Of a stretch of DNA of 64,000 nucleotides, positions 25,153 to 63,456 are shown one piece after another. Both the position numbers and the translations under genes were made by a program. How positions within the stretch are numbered: position 1 is the stretch's first letter; every line of letters begins with the position of its first letter. The notes below the pieces were generated by a model that was not told where the DNA came from, did not search any database, and was given only the letters and a program-made list of their open reading frames with translations. This DNA comes from Escherichia phage KEP4, in sequence record PP047754, one strand, 5' to 3'.

Positions 25153-25191
25153 AGATACCCCACACTGGTCGTATGGGGTATTTAGGATGGA

Positions 25192-55804: not shown

Positions 55805-56487
55805 TCATGAGCAATATGTCAGAAAGGTTACTTGCGACGCTAGACGCGGTGACTGCCAGAGATGAAGTTGGTAAGGAGGCGATGGAAGCCGTCTCTCCAC
55901 GTCCAGGTATTGACTTCGATGAAAAAACGGGCGAGTGGTTTGGTGAACGCCCAGAAGGTTATCAGCCGATTCCAGAACCTCCATCATTGGAAGATATCGC
56001 GTCCAAAGAATCCAAGGTTCCGGAGTTTGCGGATACTGATGCCACAACAGATTACAAGCGGATACGCGACACAACATATGCCATGCAAGAAGCCACGATG
56101 TTCATGATGGGGCAAGCTGCTAAATTAGCTGCATCTACCGAAGCCCCAAGAGCGTTTTCCGTGTTTCGTGAATTGGGCGAACTCATGCGCGGCCTGAACA
56201 AAGACCTGATGGAAAACCAAAAAACCATCAAAGCTGTGACAGGGGATAAAGAACCGCCGACTGATGACACAACCGTGGATGTTACCACTTCACCCGACGG
56301 GACCACAACAGTATCTGTTGGGAAGAAAGCGAGATCTTCGCGCGATTTATTGAAAACGATCGAAGATGCACGCCGCCGCGCTGAAGAACGCGCCCAGGCA
56401 AAAGCCACCCAACAAACCGAAGATGAAATTATCGACGGAGAAACGGTTGACGTGAAGGAAGAAGACGATGGCGTATCAGAAGCGTGA
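55801..56487 (+). CDS. terminase small subunit (gp16-like)
   Basis: 228-aa ORF overlapping the TerL start by 20 nt; central region resembles T4 gp16 as recalled; acidic C-terminus. Confidence 0.6.
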   Translation: MIMSNMSERLLATLDAVTARDEVGKEAMEAVSPRPGIDFDEKTGEWFGERPEGYQPIPEPPSLEDIASKESKVPEFADTDATTDYKRIRDTTYAMQEATMFMMGQAAKLAASTEAPRAFSVFRELGELMRGLNKDLMENQKTIKAVTGDKEPPTDDTTVDVTTSPDGTTTVSVGKKARSSRDLLKTIEDARRRAEERAQAKATQQTEDEIIDGETVDVKEEDDGVSEA

Positions 56488-58678
56488 TATAGAATATGCT
56501 CCGATAAAAACGGGGTTTAAAATCGACGACGTGAAATTGCGTATGGACCAGACGTTCATGCGCAAGCCTTCTGTGCGCGCTCCACGAGTCGAGTTGATGC
56601 TAACAGATGAACAAGAAGACGAATTTGTTGAATGTTCAATGGACGCGCATTACTTCGCTGCCAATTACTATAAGATAACGACAATCGATAAAGGCTTTAT
56701 CCTTTTCGATATGCATGATTATCAGAAACAATTATTTCACGATTTTCAAGATTATCGTTTCAATGCCGTTGTCCAGGCGCGTCAGTCCGGTAAATGCGTC
56801 CGTGGTGATACTCTTGTTTATGTCTATGATACAGTCAGTCAACAAGAGTTGCATCTCACCATAGAAGAGCTTCACAAGCGCTTCGAAGGACCGAACCATG
56901 CTGTGCCACTGAATACCATTGGCAACCACAATAAGTTTGTAGACAGCCGTTTCGGGAAACGATATTTTGTTGAGTCCGACACTGGCTGGGTTCCGGTTAT
57001 TGCCGCTCATAAAACGAAAGAATACGCTGAATACGTGGTCAGGACTGAAACCGGACGCACAATTCATGTCGCAGATGAGCACATGTTCTTCAATGAATAT
57101 GGGCGCGAAGTATTTGCTAAAGACATGGAGGCCGGAGATGCCATAATGACCCAGGAGGGAATAGAATTCATCTCTGAGATCTGGGAGACTGGTGAGTACC
57201 ACCACATGTATGACTTGCAAGTCAAGTCCAGCGATCAACGTTATTACACGAATGGGTTCCTCAGCCATAATACCACGGTCGTGGCTGCGTTTCTTCTTTG
57301 GTATGCGATGTTCCACTCAGACAAAGAAATCGCGGTACTGGCAAACAAAGAGAAACAAGCGATTGAAATTCTTGACCGTATCAGGAAGGCGTATCAGGAC
57401 CTCCCATTCTTCCTTCAGCAGGGTTGTGAGAAGTTTGGTTCTACACTGATAGAGTTTGAGAACGGCTCTAAGATATATGCTTATGCAACGTCTTCGGACT
57501 CTATTCGTGGTCGTTCTGTATCTCTCTTGTACGTGGACGAAGTCGCATTCATCGAAAATGACTTTGAATTTTGGGAATCAACATTCCCAGCGATCGCATC
57601 TGCTGATACTTCACGTTGTATTCTGACCAGTACTCCGAAAGGCCAGCGAGGGTTGTTCTATGATATCGTCACCAAAGCAGACCCGCGCCATCCGCAATAC
57701 AACGACTTCCATCTTACCGAAGTCCCTTGGTACAAGGTTCCGGCGTACACCAAAGACCCTGATTGGGAAACCAAACAACGCGCTCGTCTGGGGGATGCCC
57801 GTTTTGACCAGGAATTTGGAATCAAGTTCCGTGGTTCTGTAGGTTCATTGATACCAGCCAAATGCTTGGATAAAATGACATCCAAGTTATATCGAGAGCC
57901 TAATGAATTCACCAAAATTTACAAGGAATATGACCCGCAACGCATCTACTTCGGGATTGCAGATACGGGGAAAGGTGTTGAAGGAGATTATTCGGTTCTG
58001 ACAATTCTGGATATAACGGAATACCCGCATGTCATAGCGGCCAAGTACAGGAACAATACAATACCTCCGATGATGTATGCATACACGATAGCCGATATGT
58101 GTACTGAATACGGGGAATGCCCTGTCCTTGTAGAAACCAACAACGACGTTGGTGGACAGGTTATTACGATCTTGTATCAAGAAATTGAGTATCCAGAGAT
58201 CATATTCACGTCGACGGATAACAAAGGGACAGGGAAACGGATTGGTGGTCGTAAACCAGAGCCAGGCATTAACACCAACAGGAAAGTGCGATCTATTGGT
58301 TGTGCTAACCTGAAAGCGCTTATTGAGAAAGAAATGTTGGTGATTGAAGATCAAGACACGATAGATGAACTCAGCACATTCGTGTTCCGTGGTGCGCGTT
58401 ATGAAGCAGATGATGGATGTCACGACGACTGCGTTATGCCGTTGGTATTATATTCTTGGGCAGTTAAACAAGAATGGTTCAGTGATCTGACTTCTACCAG
58501 TATTTCTCAAGACATGAGAAATAGAATGTCTTCGACTGAGTCACAACAAGTATTCCCGTTTGGTGGTTTAGTCGTGGGAGACACTCCATCTGGAACTGAG
58601 CATCTCCCTGGGTTCGGTGGTGTTCAAGTCTTCGACGAACGTTCAGGGATGACCATGGATGAGTGGTTTAAGAATTGA
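56468..58678 (+). CDS. terminase large subunit (T4 gp17-like), interrupted by a mini-intein
   Basis: 736-aa ORF. Extein matches gp17 across the ATPase (...VVQARQSGK / TTVVAAFLLWYAMF...GSKIYAYATSSDSIRGRSVSLLYVDEVAFIEN); about 159 extra residues sit between the Lys and Thr of the Walker A GK[TS]. Confidence 0.9.
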   Translation: MAYQKRDIEYAPIKTGFKIDDVKLRMDQTFMRKPSVRAPRVELMLTDEQEDEFVECSMDAHYFAANYYKITTIDKGFILFDMHDYQKQLFHDFQDYRFNAVVQARQSGKCVRGDTLVYVYDTVSQQELHLTIEELHKRFEGPNHAVPLNTIGNHNKFVDSRFGKRYFVESDTGWVPVIAAHKTKEYAEYVVRTETGRTIHVADEHMFFNEYGREVFAKDMEAGDAIMTQEGIEFISEIWETGEYHHMYDLQVKSSDQRYYTNGFLSHNTTVVAAFLLWYAMFHSDKEIAVLANKEKQAIEILDRIRKAYQDLPFFLQQGCEKFGSTLIEFENGSKIYAYATSSDSIRGRSVSLLYVDEVAFIENDFEFWESTFPAIASADTSRCILTSTPKGQRGLFYDIVTKADPRHPQYNDFHLTEVPWYKVPAYTKDPDWETKQRARLGDARFDQEFGIKFRGSVGSLIPAKCLDKMTSKLYREPNEFTKIYKEYDPQRIYFGIADTGKGVEGDYSVLTILDITEYPHVIAAKYRNNTIPPMMYAYTIADMCTEYGECPVLVETNNDVGGQVITILYQEIEYPEIIFTSTDNKGTGKRIGGRKPEPGINTNRKVRSIGCANLKALIEKEMLVIEDQDTIDELSTFVFRGARYEADDGCHDDCVMPLVLYSWAVKQEWFSDLTSTSISQDMRNRMSSTESQQVFPFGGLVVGDTPSGTEHLPGFGGVQVFDERSGMTMDEWFKN
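56795..57271 (+). mobile_element. mini-intein (Hint domain, no endonuclease domain) inside TerL
   Basis: In-frame 477-nt insert starting with Cys (CVRGDTLVYVYD...) and ending ...HHMYDLQVKSSDQRYYTNGFLSHN followed by Thr; block F/G-like ends and a TxxH-like block B (RTIHVADEH). Confidence 0.8.
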
Positions 58679-58730
58679 TCACTAAATATCTTTCAAATTG
58701 AGCGAAACTCTACCGAGAAGGAATGATATT

Positions 58731-60626
58731 ATGGCAACTCAAAGCTTCAGCGTTGCGCCGTCCGTTCAGTGGACTGAGCGTGATGCCACGCTTCAGACGT
58801 CCCCGTCCGTTGTTGTTCAGGGCGCGACCGTCGGCAAATTTCAATGGGGTGAAGTTGAACTTCCAGTGCTGGTGACTGGTGGTGAGACAGGTTTGGTGAA
58901 GAAATTCTTCAAACCCAACGACAGCACCGCGACCGATTTTCTCGTAATCGCGGACTTTTTGTCTTACAGCTCTATGGCATGGGTGACCCGTGTTGTTGGT
59001 CCTCTGGCCAAGAACTCTGTTACCAAAGGTCAGACAGCGATTGCGATCAAAAACAAACTGGATTTTGAAACAGCAAGTCCTTCGGCGTCCATCACTTGGA
59101 CTGGTCGTTATCCAGGTTCCCTGGGTAATGATATTGCTATCAATGTTTGTGATGCTGCTGGGTTCTCAACTTGGGAATTCCGTAATAACTTTGCATACGC
59201 ACCTCAGTCTGGTGAATTCCATGTAGTTGTCGTAGACAAAGTTGGTCGCATTACCGACTCTGCTGGCGCGGTCGGTCAGGTTGACCGTATCTCCGTTTCT
59301 GGTACGGCTACTGCTGCTGGCACCATCAGTGTGGCAGGTGAAGATATCGCATATCTGGATACTGATACTCCAGCCGATTTGGCAACCAAAATCGGCACAG
59401 CGCTAACTTCCCTGACAAGTGTTTATTCTTCTGTTGTCGTGAAGTCCAACACTGTCATCGTGACACATAAAGCTATCGGTCCTCAGGCCGTTACAGCTAT
59501 CGTTCCTGATGATAAAGGACTGACTGCAACAGCCGTAATCACTACTGTTGGCGCTTCTGGTTCCATCATTGAAAAATACGAACTGATGCAGAACACCCAG
59601 GGTTCTAAAAAATCCGATGGCGCGAATGCGTACTTCAAAGACGTGATCAACGATACTTCAAATTGGGTGTATACCTTCGCGAGCGAACTGGTTGCAGGTG
59701 TCGTTGAATTAGAAGGCGGCGTAGACGATTATAACATCAACCGCGTGGCAGCTATCCAAGTCTTGAACAATGCTGAAGCATATGATGCGAAGCCAGTATT
59801 TGCGTACTGTGAAGAACTGATTGAGCAACAAGCATTGATCGACTTATCTACTGAGCGAAAAGATACTGTATCTTTCGTATCCCCGCTCCGTGATACGGTT
59901 GTTGGCAACCGTGGTCGTGAAATGGATGATGTCGTTGCTTGGCGTGAAAGTCTGGTGCGCGACTCCTCCTATTTCTTCATGGACGACAACTGGGCATACG
60001 TGTACGATAAATACAACGATAAGATGCGTTGGATTCCGGCTTGTGGCGGCACCGCAGGTGTTTGGGCGCGAAGCATTGAAATCGCGGGTATCTACAAATC
60101 TCCGGCGTTCCACAACCGTGGTAAATACAACAACTATAATCGAATGGCGTGGTCTGCGTCTTCTGATGAACGTGCTGTGTTGTACCGCAATCAGATCAAC
60201 AGCATCGTAACCTTCTCCAATGAAGGCATCGTCCTGTATGGTGACAAAACTGGCCTGACCCGCCCGTCGGCGTTTGACCGCATCAACGTTCGTGGTCTGT
60301 TCATCATGGCTGAGCAGAACATCGCCGCAATCGCCAAATACTATCTTGGTGAGAACAATGACGCGTTTACACGTGGTCTGTTCAGCAATGCGGTTCGTCC
60401 ATATATTCGCCAGCTGGCGAATATGGGCGCGATTTACGATGGTAAAGTCAAGTGTGATGAAGATAACAACACTGCTGATGTCATTGCGGCAAACCAAATG
60501 GTTGCTGGTATCTGGTTGAAACCGGAATACAGCATAAATTGGGTGTATCTTGACTTTGCTGCAGTTCGACCAGATATGGAGTTCAGCGAAATCGAATCCG
60601 GTGGCGGCATCGTTGCTGCTTCATAA
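58731..60626 (+). CDS. tail sheath protein (T4 gp18-like)
   Basis: ORF 58698..60626; start placed at MATQSFSV... N-terminal GKFQWG and C-terminal DKYNDKMRWIP...VLYGDKTGLTRPSAFDRINVRGLF match the gp18 signatures. Confidence 0.9.
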   Translation: MATQSFSVAPSVQWTERDATLQTSPSVVVQGATVGKFQWGEVELPVLVTGGETGLVKKFFKPNDSTATDFLVIADFLSYSSMAWVTRVVGPLAKNSVTKGQTAIAIKNKLDFETASPSASITWTGRYPGSLGNDIAINVCDAAGFSTWEFRNNFAYAPQSGEFHVVVVDKVGRITDSAGAVGQVDRISVSGTATAAGTISVAGEDIAYLDTDTPADLATKIGTALTSLTSVYSSVVVKSNTVIVTHKAIGPQAVTAIVPDDKGLTATAVITTVGASGSIIEKYELMQNTQGSKKSDGANAYFKDVINDTSNWVYTFASELVAGVVELEGGVDDYNINRVAAIQVLNNAEAYDAKPVFAYCEELIEQQALIDLSTERKDTVSFVSPLRDTVVGNRGREMDDVVAWRESLVRDSSYFFMDDNWAYVYDKYNDKMRWIPACGGTAGVWARSIEIAGIYKSPAFHNRGKYNNYNRMAWSASSDERAVLYRNQINSIVTFSNEGIVLYGDKTGLTRPSAFDRINVRGLFIMAEQNIAAIAKYYLGENNDAFTRGLFSNAVRPYIRQLANMGAIYDGKVKCDEDNNTADVIAANQMVAGIWLKPEYSINWVYLDFAAVRPDMEFSEIESGGGIVAAS

Positions 60627-60634
60627 AATGACCA

Positions 60635-60660
60635 ACCCCGCTTCGGCGGGGTTTTCCTTT
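60635..60660 (+). terminator. rho-independent terminator (UUCG tetraloop)
   Basis: ACCCCGC-TTCG-GCGGGGT followed by TTTCCTTTG, directly after the sheath stop. Confidence 0.7.
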
Positions 60661-60683: not shown

Positions 60684-61142
60684 ATGATATACGCATACAA
60701 AATTGAAACGATAACTAATGGAAAGGTCTACATCGGTGTGACCAATCACCCACAACGAAGATATGATCAGCATTTTGCGAATGCTTTTCATCATGGAGTC
60801 CAAAGTGAATTGTATGATGCCATGCGTAAGTATGGAACATCTGGATTTACTTTCGTTGTAATTGCTCAGACCGATGAAGTCCATAAATGGGAATTAGAGA
60901 AGCAACTCATCGCTCAATATAATTCTTATGAGATGGGTTACAACATGAATAAAGGCGGTAATGATGGAAGTCATATGCTGGGTAAAACTGCAGCAAAATT
61001 GACATCTACAGGTGAACACATTGGTCTTGTTTCTCTCATAGATCCCCGTTGGGAATTGTGTGAAATCGAACCCGTTTTAAGCAATGTTGACCACGGATTT
61101 GATTTTTCTTCCATGAAGATTAAAAGATTGACGACTAATTAG
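60684..61142 (+). CDS. GIY-YIG family homing endonuclease (free-standing)
   Basis: 152-aa ORF; N-terminal IYAYKIETITNGKVYIGVT...RRYDQH is a GIY-YIG motif with the conserved Arg; inserted between the sheath and tube genes. Confidence 0.7.
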   Translation: MIYAYKIETITNGKVYIGVTNHPQRRYDQHFANAFHHGVQSELYDAMRKYGTSGFTFVVIAQTDEVHKWELEKQLIAQYNSYEMGYNMNKGGNDGSHMLGKTAAKLTSTGEHIGLVSLIDPRWELCEIEPVLSNVDHGFDFSSMKIKRLTTN

Positions 61143-61172
61143 AATTGTGTACTCTTATTTGGAGATATAAAA

Positions 61173-61706
61173 ATGGCGACAGTCAATGAGTTTCGCGCAG
61201 CCATGTCACGAGGGGGCGGCGTACAACGCCAACACCGCTGGCGTGTGACTGTAAACTTTCCTTCTTTTGTTGCTGGTTCCGACACAATTCGTGACGTGTC
61301 CTTGCTGGCTGTAACCACCAACACCCCAACAGGTCAGCTGGGCGAAATTCTGGTGCCCTGGGGTGGTCGTGAACTTCCGTTCCCAGGGGATCGTCGTTTC
61401 GAAGCGCTTCCTGTGACGTTCATTAACGTGGTGAACAACGCTCCATACAATGCTTTTGAAGTGTGGCAGCAATTCATCAACGGTAGTGAAAACAACCGCG
61501 CCAGCGCGAATCCAGATGATTATTTCCGTGATATCATCATGGAACTTCTGGACGCGAATGACAACGTGACTAAGACATGGACTTTGCAGGGTGGCTGGCC
61601 TCAAAACCTCGGCCAATTGGAACTCGATATGTCGGCAATGGACTCTTACACACAGTTCACTGTCGACTTGCGTTATTTCCAAGCCGTTTCTGACAAGTCA
61701 TTGTAA
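61173..61706 (+). CDS. tail tube protein (T4 gp19-like)
   Basis: 177-aa ORF; C-terminal GWPQNLGQLELDMSAMDSYTQFTVDLRYFQA matches the gp19 LWPTNVGELQLDWDS...FEVTLALDYWE pattern. Confidence 0.85.
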   Translation: MATVNEFRAAMSRGGGVQRQHRWRVTVNFPSFVAGSDTIRDVSLLAVTTNTPTGQLGEILVPWGGRELPFPGDRRFEALPVTFINVVNNAPYNAFEVWQQFINGSENNRASANPDDYFRDIIMELLDANDNVTKTWTLQGGWPQNLGQLELDMSAMDSYTQFTVDLRYFQAVSDKSL

Positions 61707-61773
61707 TGTCCTCGGTGCTGGGGGAATGTTATTCCCCCTCACTAATTACAAGAAAATGTTGAGGACTTAGATC

Positions 61774-63456
61774 ATGGCTGGATACGGCAGAGGGTTCTTC
61801 GGTTTGTTTGGCGGCGGCGGTTTAGTCAATGCCAAAGTCGACACCGATAAGTTAGCCCAAAAACAAGATGAATTGTTGCTCACCAAGGCGACAGTTGTTG
61901 CTCTGGACGATGCTCAAGACGGTTCTATAATCCTTCAGGGCGGTGCAAACACCTACAACTATGTTGGCGTTGAGAGTGAACTTCTCAGCGTTAAAACAGT
62001 TGTGGAAGAATATCAGTCCATGGCTCAACAGCCTGAAATTCGCAAAGCGGTGGACATTATTGTCAATGATGTTGTCACCTGTGAGGAAGATGAAACTCCA
62101 GTGACAGTAAACCTTGACAAAGTTGAAGGGATATCTGATACTGTTAAAGAATCTATCACCGAATGCTTCAAAGAAGTTATGCACTTGATGGACTTTGACA
62201 ATACAGCATATCAGAAGATCCGGAAATGGTATGTTGACGGTCGACAAGCATATCATGTCATCGTTGATCCCACGAATAAAAAAGGCGGGATCAAGAAATT
62301 GGTTATGCTTGATTCTCGTTGCATTCGTCCTGTCTATATCGTTGAGAAGGCGATGCGTGAAGGCGGTATTGAAGCAATAGAATCTGTAACATTGAAGTAT
62401 TATTACAACCCGAATTATAATCGAAACCAATTCACTGGCCAATCTGGTACTTCCCAGAACTTCCAGCCTTCACAGCAAGAACTCGTATTCGATGACGAAA
62501 GCATTGTTTACATCGATAGTGGTGAAGAGCCATTGGCCAATGGTATTGTCCCAGGCCTTTTAAATCCTGCTATCCGTCCGTTGAACAACCTGGTTACGAC
62601 TGAAGATGCGACTGTAATTTATGCCATCACTCGCGCCCCTGAGAAACGCGCATTCTATCTTGACGTCGGTACTCTCGGTAAGAAATCTGCTGAAGAATAC
62701 ATGACCATGATGATGGGTAAATTCAAAAACCGCAACGCATATGACCGCACCACTGGTAAGATAACAGGTAATGCCCATCTTATGGGTATTGCAGAGGATT
62801 ATTGGTTGCCGCGCCGCGAAGGTCAGAATGCTACAGAGATTGCGACTGTTGGGGGTGGGAATCAATTGGGCGAAATGGATCACGTGAACTATTTCCGTGA
62901 AAAACTCTATGATGCTCTAATGATCCCTAAGAGCCGCCTCCAAGAGGAAGGATCTATTAACATTGGGGGTTCTAACCTTGCGGAGATTACACAGGAAGAG
63001 CTGCGCTTCAGCAAGTTCTGTGCTGGGTTACGACGCCGTTACTCCCATTTCTTCATGGAATTCTTGCGCCGCCAGTTAATTTTGAAAGGCGTTACGGATG
63101 AAAAGGATTGGAATGAGAAGATCAAACCGTTTATAAAGTTTGAATTCACATCCGATAGTTACATTCGTGAACAACAAGAAAACGCTATCTTGAATGATCG
63201 TCTGGCTTCATTGAACACTGTTGAGCCATTTGTTGGTTCCATTTTCTCCATAGACTACGTCATGAGAAATGTATTGCGTATGTCTGATGAAGAAGTTAAA
63301 GAACAACAAACGAAGATCGCGGAAGAGAAAAAGAAAGGTCTCTATCCGAAGGTTCAAGCAGATGAAACTGGCAATTATAGCGGTTCAGATGTTAGTCCGT
63401 TGAAGTTTAAACCTGAGACTATCCCATTCTCCGGTTCAACAGACGATAGTATTTAA
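61774..63456 (+). CDS. portal vertex protein (T4 gp20-like)
   Basis: 560-aa ORF; RKWYVDGRQAYHVIVDP and VIYAITRAPEKRAFYLDVGTLGKKSAEEYM...EDYWLPRREGQ match conserved gp20 blocks. Confidence 0.85.
   Translation: MAGYGRGFFGLFGGGGLVNAKVDTDKLAQKQDELLLTKATVVALDDAQDGSIILQGGANTYNYVGVESELLSVKTVVEEYQSMAQQPEIRKAVDIIVNDVVTCEEDETPVTVNLDKVEGISDTVKESITECFKEVMHLMDFDNTAYQKIRKWYVDGRQAYHVIVDPTNKKGGIKKLVMLDSRCIRPVYIVEKAMREGGIEAIESVTLKYYYNPNYNRNQFTGQSGTSQNFQPSQQELVFDDESIVYIDSGEEPLANGIVPGLLNPAIRPLNNLVTTEDATVIYAITRAPEKRAFYLDVGTLGKKSAEEYMTMMMGKFKNRNAYDRTTGKITGNAHLMGIAEDYWLPRREGQNATEIATVGGGNQLGEMDHVNYFREKLYDALMIPKSRLQEEGSINIGGSNLAEITQEELRFSKFCAGLRRRYSHFFMEFLRRQLILKGVTDEKDWNEKIKPFIKFEFTSDSYIREQQENAILNDRLASLNTVEPFVGSIFSIDYVMRNVLRMSDEEVKEQQTKIAEEKKKGLYPKVQADETGNYSGSDVSPLKFKPETIPFSGSTDDSI

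Follow-up and report, generated by a model that had tools for sequence, protein, structure and literature searches.

A probable short-form Seg-like homing endonuclease gene at the contested tail sheath-tail tube junction of Escherichia phage KEP4

Escherichia phage KEP4 carries, between its genes for tail sheath and tail tube, a small gene with a GIY-YIG nuclease motif, which raises the question whether it encodes a working homing endonuclease, a nuclease kept for some other benefit, a decaying remnant or a housekeeping enzyme. We analysed a stretch of 64,000 nucleotides (nt) of this phage (sequence record PP047754; here called the window), in which the open reading frame (ORF) concerned runs from 60684-61142 on the plus strand, starts with ATG and encodes 152 amino acids (aa) with the N-terminus MIYAYKIETITNGKVYIGVTNHPQRRYDQH. 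The original prediction, made from the letters of the DNA, had called it a free-standing Seg/I-Tev-like homing endonuclease. Our analysis supports this reading, with cleavage and mobility of its own as predicted properties. We consider it probable that the ORF encodes a functional, long-resident, short-form Seg-like homing endonuclease, active in marker exclusion at a contested junction.

The product matched the Pfam GIY-YIG family (PF01541, E=1e-10, 42.2 bits with a cut-off of 22.6), clearly indicating that this is no chance ORF, and aligned end to end (1-152 of 152) with PHROG 5123, 'homing endonuclease with GIY-YIG motif' (E=2e-93). The match to the NCBIfam 'group I intron endonuclease' family was 46.8 bits, below the cut-off of 56.05. 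The G + C content of the ORF was 38% (34% at third codon positions), versus 49-51% for the flanking genes, and no further GIY-YIG genes were found in the window. Three parts of the protein could be distinguished:

60684..60974, plus strand: GIY-YIG catalytic domain, residues 1-97 (PF01541, I-TevI alignment, invariant columns, AlphaFold2 (AF2) model with Foldseek search).
60975..61076, plus strand: single 'DPRW' unit, residues 98-131, HMLGKTAAKLTSTGEHIGLVSLIDPRWELCEIEP (invariance, repeat profile).
61077..61142, plus strand: poorly conserved tail, residues 132-152, with the stop codon.

Members of the GIY-YIG superfamily have the GIY and YIG motifs, a catalytic Arg, a His or Tyr, a Glu and an Asn, and an alpha/beta fold. 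The Pfam match, the aligned catalytic residues and the fold match all place the ORF in this superfamily. By phmmer, residues 5-87 aligned to the I-TevI catalytic domain (1mk0/1ln0), such that Y5, Y16, R26, H30, E72 and N87 of the ORF correspond to Y6, Y17, R27, H31, E75 and N90 of I-TevI. The GIY-YIG motif that had been read from the 152-aa translation is thus genuine, and the catalytic Arg and Glu, whose absence the original prediction had named as a ground for refuting it, are both present (R26 and E72, I-TevI R27 and E75). All six residues were invariant in the family alignment, also after the long and reverse-strand relatives described below were added. AF2 was run with alignments of 9 and 59 sequences; with the latter, residues 1-93 were modelled at a predicted local distance difference test score (pLDDT) of about 90-96. 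The top Foldseek match of the model was the I-TevI catalytic domain (template modelling (TM) score 0.81-0.82, root-mean-square deviation 1.9-2.1 A over 92-94 residues). UvrC was a far weaker match (TM 0.57, E=0.03), and Slx1 was also weaker.

To this extent the ORF could still be a housekeeping GIY-YIG nuclease of the UvrC, Slx1 or YhbQ type, serving repair or processing of phage DNA, since the fold is common to repair nucleases and UvrC and Slx1 do appear among the structural matches. However, the best matches in both sequence and structure were I-TevI and the 'group I intron endonuclease' family, the UvrC match did not exceed the values given above, and the intergenic position and the sporadic, replaceable distribution do not suit such a role. 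We regard a housekeeping function as very improbable.

The ORF is under strong purifying selection. Between the window and Klebsiella phage 0507-KN2-1 (KN2-1), the non-synonymous divergence (dN) was 0.123, the synonymous divergence (dS) 1.475 and dN/dS 0.084; the ratio is approximate because dS is near saturation, but the raw counts agree, with 41 of 362 non-synonymous and 59 of 91 synonymous sites changed between the genera. The constraint spans both the catalytic part (dN/dS about 0.09-0.10) and the DPRW unit (dN 0.10, dS saturated). In the tail of 21 residues it is relaxed (dN 0.30, versus 0.10 for the remaining protein). Serratia phage 3M was more divergent from the window, for the ORF as well as for each of its flanks. 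The ORF appears to have travelled with its flanks since before the split of Kuttervirus and Taipeivirus, and its product appears to matter.

The window is a segment of a Kuttervirus genome (ViI/CBA120-like Ackermannviridae). Its sheath-ORF-tube stretch was 98-99% identical to that of many Salmonella and Escherichia phages, and the junction was 100% identical to that of Salmonella phage ISTP3. At 80% or more amino-acid identity the 152-aa gene was present in about 197 phage records of about 265 megablast-level relatives; occupancy and record counts were taken from identity bands and sampled rows of these approximately 265 records. Length and frame were kept in about 200 records from four lineages. 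Among the matches listed, the only disrupted copy was that of Salmonella phage SE14 (MK972690.1, 90980-91434), which aligned in two pieces at 92.7% identity and is either frameshifted or carries a sequencing error.

The gene is known at the annotation level, from many GenBank records and two papers (PMC3184105, PMC3220722). Proteins identical to its product have been deposited and annotated as GIY-YIG homing endonucleases, an annotation that RefSeq carries in many phages. Kutter et al. (2011) described the CBA120 orthologue, orf195, as 'a homolog of T4 segD' (PMC3184105), and Hooton et al. (2011) listed a 152-aa GIY-YIG endonuclease between the tube and sheath genes of PhiSH19 (PMC3220722). 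On function or expression, the literature held only these genome-annotation mentions, and no functional study was found.

The position between tail sheath and tail tube genes was confirmed by Pfam and PHROG assignments of the neighbours, and the original prediction had proposed to look in related phages for presence or absence of the ORF at this junction. Insertion polymorphism was indeed found: the site may be empty, or the ORF may be replaced or joined by another gene. The junction is a hotspot, invaded time and again by homing endonuclease genes of different kinds. The gap between sheath and tube ranged from 80 to 2400 bp among sequenced Ackermannviridae, with at least eight states of occupancy:

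Sheath next to tube, separated by only 12 nt: Vibrio phage 207E48.1.
Spacer of 78 nt without a gene ('empty'): Shigella phage Ag3, Gloob.
152-aa gene alone: most Kuttervirus and Taipeivirus, IME250, 3M.
Reverse-strand 262-aa GIY-YIG gene and 152-aa gene: PhaxI, Det7 and others.
Reverse-strand GIY-YIG gene (262-264 aa) alone: SilasIsHot, Se-J, SP-9-14.
Long plus-strand GIY-YIG gene (230-245 aa) alone: allotria, SKML-39, AV101, YX22, K5lambda5.
Long GIY-YIG gene followed directly by the 152-aa gene, the stop of the one overlapping or abutting the start of the other: rabagast, phiMAM1.
Hef-like gene of 591-596 aa, reverse strand: Mutine and LIMEstone1 (F-LimVIII, PMC3296691).

The two tandem arrangements were found in Salmonella phage rabagast (L015, 1916-2653 and 2650-3108), where stop and start overlap in ATGA, and in Serratia phage phiMAM1 (L016, 1822-2499 and 2501-2971), where a single nt separates the genes. 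This spacing suggests that the long and short genes are translationally coupled. Seg-like genes are typically intergenic between conserved genes and sporadic among relatives, and the 152-aa gene shows both properties.

Two junctions carried traces of earlier occupants. In Dickeya phage LIMEstone1 (L005, 5345-5464) a 39-codon stub ORF, MITNSHIDSGPIPEVGIYQRKRATDLRLKTTGWQLIRIV, consists of the first 3 and last 36 codons of a long gene of the K5lambda5 type (75% identity, E=6e-19); a second copy of the terminator precedes the stub, and F-LimVIII has been inserted upstream. The arrangement reads as a nested invasion over a decayed endonuclease gene. The 78-nt spacer of Ag3 (L001, 1878-1955) ends with CTAATTAGAATTGTGTAA, followed by the downstream spacer of the long form, and this CTAATTAGAATTGTGTAA equals the last 18 nt (LIRIV and stop) of the long-form genes of AV101 and YX22. 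Because these 18 nt are retained, the 'empty' site of Ag3 may be a deletion scar that kept the promoter box of the tube gene.

The occupant of the junction was reflected in the sequence beside it. In phages with different occupants, the last 160 nt of the sheath gene were 3-25 times more divergent than the remainder, with 10-25% divergence in this tract versus 0.4-5% in the other 1717 nt (Fisher p 1e-6 to 7e-28). Divergence in the remainder and in the last 160 nt, respectively, was as follows:

60467..60626 of the window, plus strand: last 160 nt of the tail sheath gene, a mosaic tract and a candidate for the region of co-conversion or for the target.
Kuttervirus pairs that differ in occupant: mostly 0.4-5%, and 10-25% (p mostly 1e-6 to 7e-20).
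Ag3 (empty) and SP-9-14 (reverse-strand gene): 0.9% and 21.9% (p 7e-28).
KN2-1 (152 aa) and K5lambda5 (230 aa): 0.9% and 10.6% (p 1e-10).
The window and Marshall (both with the 152-aa gene only): 10.9% and 9.4% (p 0.76, no excess).

The occupant-linked mosaic, confined to the last 100-160 nt of the sheath gene, was seen in three genera (Kuttervirus, Agtrevirus and Taipeivirus); between KN2-1 and K5lambda5, 16 differences fell within the last 100 nt. The changes were almost all synonymous, leaving the protein nearly unchanged. On the other side the tube gene was identical from its ATG on, except beside the Hef-like gene: in Salmonella phage Mutine (L006, 5756-5915) and LIMEstone1 (L005) the first 160 nt of the tube gene were approximately 20% divergent, versus 0-4% among the others, which suggests that the conversion tract or target of the Hef-like enzyme is the 5' end of this gene. 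Break-induced conversion, with co-conversion of the flanks, is expected to leave sharp breakpoints beside an endonuclease gene (PMC2988022; compare PMC10448857). The mosaic in the sheath tract looks like such a signature, in which the sequence leaves undecidable which enzyme made which tract.

We propose that during mixed infection the product of the ORF would cut the genome of a co-infecting relative with a different junction allele, most likely within, or close to, the 3' end of the sheath gene. If the cut is then repaired by recombination with the genome that bears the endonuclease, the gene would be copied together with its flanks, which amounts to marker exclusion or intronless homing.

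How such a gene might be expressed can be judged from the features around it. The gene order is T4-like, with TerS, TerL, tail sheath, the ORF, tail tube and portal:

56468-58678: TerL.
58682..58688, plus strand: CTAAATA late-promoter-like box upstream of the sheath gene.
58731-60626: tail sheath (Phage_sheath_1C, PHROG 23).
60634..60653, plus strand: intrinsic terminator of the sheath gene, AACCCCGC-TTCG-GCGGGGTT followed by TTTTCC (sequence, RNA fold).
61135..61153, plus strand: conserved box CTAATTAGAATTGTGTAC, holding the TAG stop of the ORF (61140-61142) and CTAATTA.
61161..61164, plus strand: GGAG ribosome-binding site of the tail tube gene (ATG at 61173; conserved in relatives).
61173-61706: tail tube, gp19-type (PHROG 45).
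61774-63456: portal, T4-type.

The 546-bp gap between sheath and tube opens with the terminator, which has a stem of 8 bp (6 of them G-C pairs), a loop of TTCG and a run of T, so that the strong terminator described earlier upstream of the ORF is borne out. It was kept in every relative examined, with two allelic stems (CCCCGC and GCCCTC). At the other end, the box at 61135..61153 was near-identical in Ag3 (empty site), KN2-1, allotria, YX22, AV101, K5lambda5 and LIMEstone1. Because its stop codon lies inside this box, the ORF exactly fills the space between the terminator and the promoter-like box of the tube gene.

The CTAAATA motif occurred 13 times in the window, versus 6.4 expected, mostly 25-50 nt upstream of start codons of late genes (copies at 58682, 63464, 54432, 47916, 42728, 40135, 36907 and 33045 on the plus strand and at 25185 and 24706 on the minus strand), and was often extended to CTAAATAcccc. 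Upstream of the LIMEstone1 sheath gene, TAAATA is annotated as 'putative late promoter'. According to Kutter et al. (2011), no sequence had yet been identified as the late promoter of the ViI family (PMC3184105); CTAAATA looks like this element in KEP4. The variant CTAATTA was found at 61135, 31 nt upstream of the tube ATG, and at 61742, 25 nt upstream of the portal ATG, and we infer that the former is a putative promoter of the tube gene. At the boxes at about 25185 (minus strand) and 36907, 40135 and 42728 (plus strand), an inverted repeat (for example CTAAATAccccatattgg...cctttatggggtat) follows directly and reaches nearly to the start codon; it would form a hairpin in the 5' untranslated region of the late transcript.

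Within the ORF, sigma-70-like matches were no commoner than in shuffled sequence, and only a weak hairpin was predicted around its start codon. Expression is probably low-level and late, by read-through of the terminator from the late promoter of the sheath gene at 58682. This agrees with the pattern for several T4 seg and mob genes, which are promoter-less cassettes with the promoters of downstream genes embedded in the endonuclease genes (PMC2988022).

Clustering at 90% identity gave only 9 clusters for the family proper, with lengths of 151-174 aa except for one partial sequence, and within this small family residues 98-131 (GKTAAKLTSTGEHIGLVSLIDPRWELCEIE) were conserved as strongly as the active site. 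In an alignment with relatives of 230-237 aa, the tail at residues 132-152 occupied the place of the C-terminal module of approximately 95 aa of the long forms. No NUMOD, helix-turn-helix (HTH) or Zn-finger module was detected in the 152-aa protein, and the short form appears to have been derived by loss of the HTH-like C-terminal module of the long forms.

When 1.8 billion representative proteins were searched with a profile, residues 98-131 proved to be one unit of a repeat of approximately 34 aa, with the consensus xGxxxAxxxxTGExLGxVxxxDPRWxTGEI. Elsewhere it occurs in 3-7 tandem copies, behind N-terminal parts that are GIY-YIG-like or resemble other nucleases (proteins with the working labels P0012, P0016, P0019, P0023, P0028, P0031, P0054 and P0102). 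The repeat had no match in Pfam, NCBIfam or the PDB sequences. A two-unit profile search returned 4 short proteins only, and by tblastn arrays turned up in no more than three other cultured phages, namely in a 'GIY-YIG domain protein' of a Vibrio jumbo phage and in one gene of two Pseudomonas phages, annotated as 'homing endonuclease' in one and as 'hypothetical protein' in the other. With so few arrays found, the distribution of the repeat is poorly known. Homing endonucleases may have in it a modular repeat for DNA binding that has not been described before, and the single unit in the ORF is presumed to be a minimal DNA-contact module. Whether the 152-aa protein is a minimised nuclease rather than a classic self-mobilising one, long selected as a weapon or recombination trigger with the single DPRW unit as its sole DNA-contact element, is an idea we consider doubtful. 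If true, the DPRW repeat would represent a novel class of modular repeats by which homing endonucleases recognise DNA.

Several observations weigh against an active homing endonuclease. Among the records examined, neither Kuttervirus nor Taipeivirus yielded a close relative whose site is empty, and the flank mosaics are therefore attributable to other occupants. Moreover, between the window and KN2-1 the dS of the ORF (1.48) resembled that of its flanks (1.32 for sheath and 1.58 for tube, all near saturation), which indicates vertical descent rather than recent transfer; it follows from this co-divergence that the present polymorphism is mostly due to other endonuclease genes joining or displacing the ORF. 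Signals for expression are also poor: GAG, 9-11 nt before the ATG, makes a weak ribosome-binding site, and there is no CTAAATA box or sigma-70-like site upstream of the ORF. Finally, the protein is without the C-terminal module of approximately 95 aa of its relatives of about 230 aa, residues 95-152 matched no known DNA-binding family (Pfam with E up to 10, NCBIfam, PDB sequences), and residues 96-152 had a pLDDT below 50 in both AF2 runs. Because no DNA-binding domain is recognised, the long-form module is missing and the C-terminus could not be modelled, site-specific cleavage is uncertain.

The same observations bear on a possible, though unlikely, alternative: that of a domesticated or stranded nuclease, which lost self-mobility along with its main DNA-binding module and was kept for another benefit. 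Such a protein might nick or degrade DNA of competitors or of the host, bias recombination near the essential structural genes or act as a partner of the long form that some phages encode just upstream. The lost module fits this explanation, and so do the co-divergence with the flanks across genera at a dN/dS of about 0.08, a constraint stronger and more lasting than a fixed, purely selfish gene would be expected to show, the persistence of the 152-aa gene beside the tube gene where further endonuclease genes have entered on the side of the sheath gene, and its coupling to or abutment on a long-form gene in rabagast and phiMAM1. On the other hand, the gene is dispensable, being absent from Ag3, SilasIsHot, allotria, Mutine and K5lambda5, nothing in the genomic context points to a role other than homing, and the seg genes of T4 are likewise intact while mobile. 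That the ORF is an inactive leftover of a long-form gene heading for deletion we think highly improbable. It does resemble an internally shortened version of the form of approximately 230 aa, and genuine remnants exist at this locus (the 39-codon stub of LIMEstone1 and the 18-nt long-form end in Ag3), but the maintenance of length and frame in so many records, the invariance of every catalytic residue and the 41/362 non-synonymous versus 59/91 synonymous changes all speak against decay. A decaying pseudogene was rejected on the dN/dS and the invariant catalytic residues.

We retain the reading of a functional short-form endonuclease as the probable one. The gene itself is ordinary in kind, and what modest interest there is comes from the rich locus and from the DPRW repeat, which is uncharacterised. 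The junction offers a natural system for studying competition between endonucleases, marker exclusion and the cycle of invasion, decay and reinvasion. In addition, ViI-like phages are widely proposed for biocontrol and therapy, often in cocktails, where exchange at the junction would occur, and the DPRW repeat, should it bind DNA, could be interesting as a modular unit for that purpose.

A second element had been claimed for this genome, an intein in TerL. Mini-inteins are in-frame inserts that start with Cys or Ser, end with His-Asn, are followed by Cys, Ser or Thr and show similarity to the Hint domain. TerL indeed contains an insert of 159 aa (residues 110-268, window 56795-57271) that starts with Cys and ends with His-Asn followed by Thr, splitting the P-loop ARQSGK|T (GK|C...SHN|T). 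Its closest PDB sequences were inteins (gp41-1, CatC, VidaL and Mxe GyrA; best gp41-1, E=8e-4), and the Pfam Intein_splicing match was 27.1 bits, below the cut-off of 35.8. The insert has the properties of a mini-intein, splicing is predicted, and spliced TerL would be 577 aa. It seems fixed in the family rather than sporadic, because TerL in LIMEstone1, Mutine, AV101, K5lambda5 and PhiSH19 (PMC3220722) is 733-739 aa throughout.

The closest known systems are the Seg endonucleases of phage T4. Seg proteins are roughly 190-225 aa, versus 152 aa for the product of the ORF, and marker exclusion or intronless homing has been shown for SegF and SegG. To proteins annotated as SegD the product was about 32-38% similar, over roughly the first 90-120 residues only. 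SegA to SegG and the ORF have in common the N-terminal GIY-YIG domain, the intergenic position between conserved essential genes and the lack of a promoter; in both, the 3' end of the endonuclease gene borders on or contains the promoter of the downstream gene (a putative one for the ORF), the distribution among relatives is sporadic and the flanking mosaics could reflect cleavage at a distance with co-conversion (PMC2988022). I-TevI shares the catalytic domain, but it is intron-encoded whereas the ORF is free-standing, and its linker, Zn finger and HTH DNA-binding region are absent from the ORF. Nearer at hand are the long forms at the same junction, of Klebsiella phage K5lambda5 (CAK6596898.1, 230 aa) and of the allotria, AV101 and YX22 type (232-237 aa), which share with the ORF the insertion site, the catalytic domain and the DPRW unit. 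Over about 133 residues the ORF was 58-61% identical to the K5lambda5 form and 42-45% identical to the allotria type. The 3' ends of the long forms run into the CTAATTAGAATTGTGTAA box, as does the ORF, but only the long forms have the extra module of approximately 95 aa (NAKRFxLISPxGEEY ... RLNTTGWQLIRIV), with weak HTH matches. The reverse-strand GIY-YIG gene of 262-264 aa (PhaxI, SilasIsHot, SP-9-14) uses the same landing pad as the ORF and also has divergent flanking tracts. F-LimVIII of LIMEstone1 and its counterpart in Mutine occupy this landing pad as well, but belong to another nuclease family (DUF7487 and DUF559-like matches), and beside them the 5' end of the tube gene is divergent, not the 3' end of the sheath gene alone. 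Both of these occupants lie on the strand opposite to the ORF and have unrelated C-terminal parts; F-LimVIII has been described as Hef-like and free-standing, and its downstream gene as that for the tail tube (PMC3296691).

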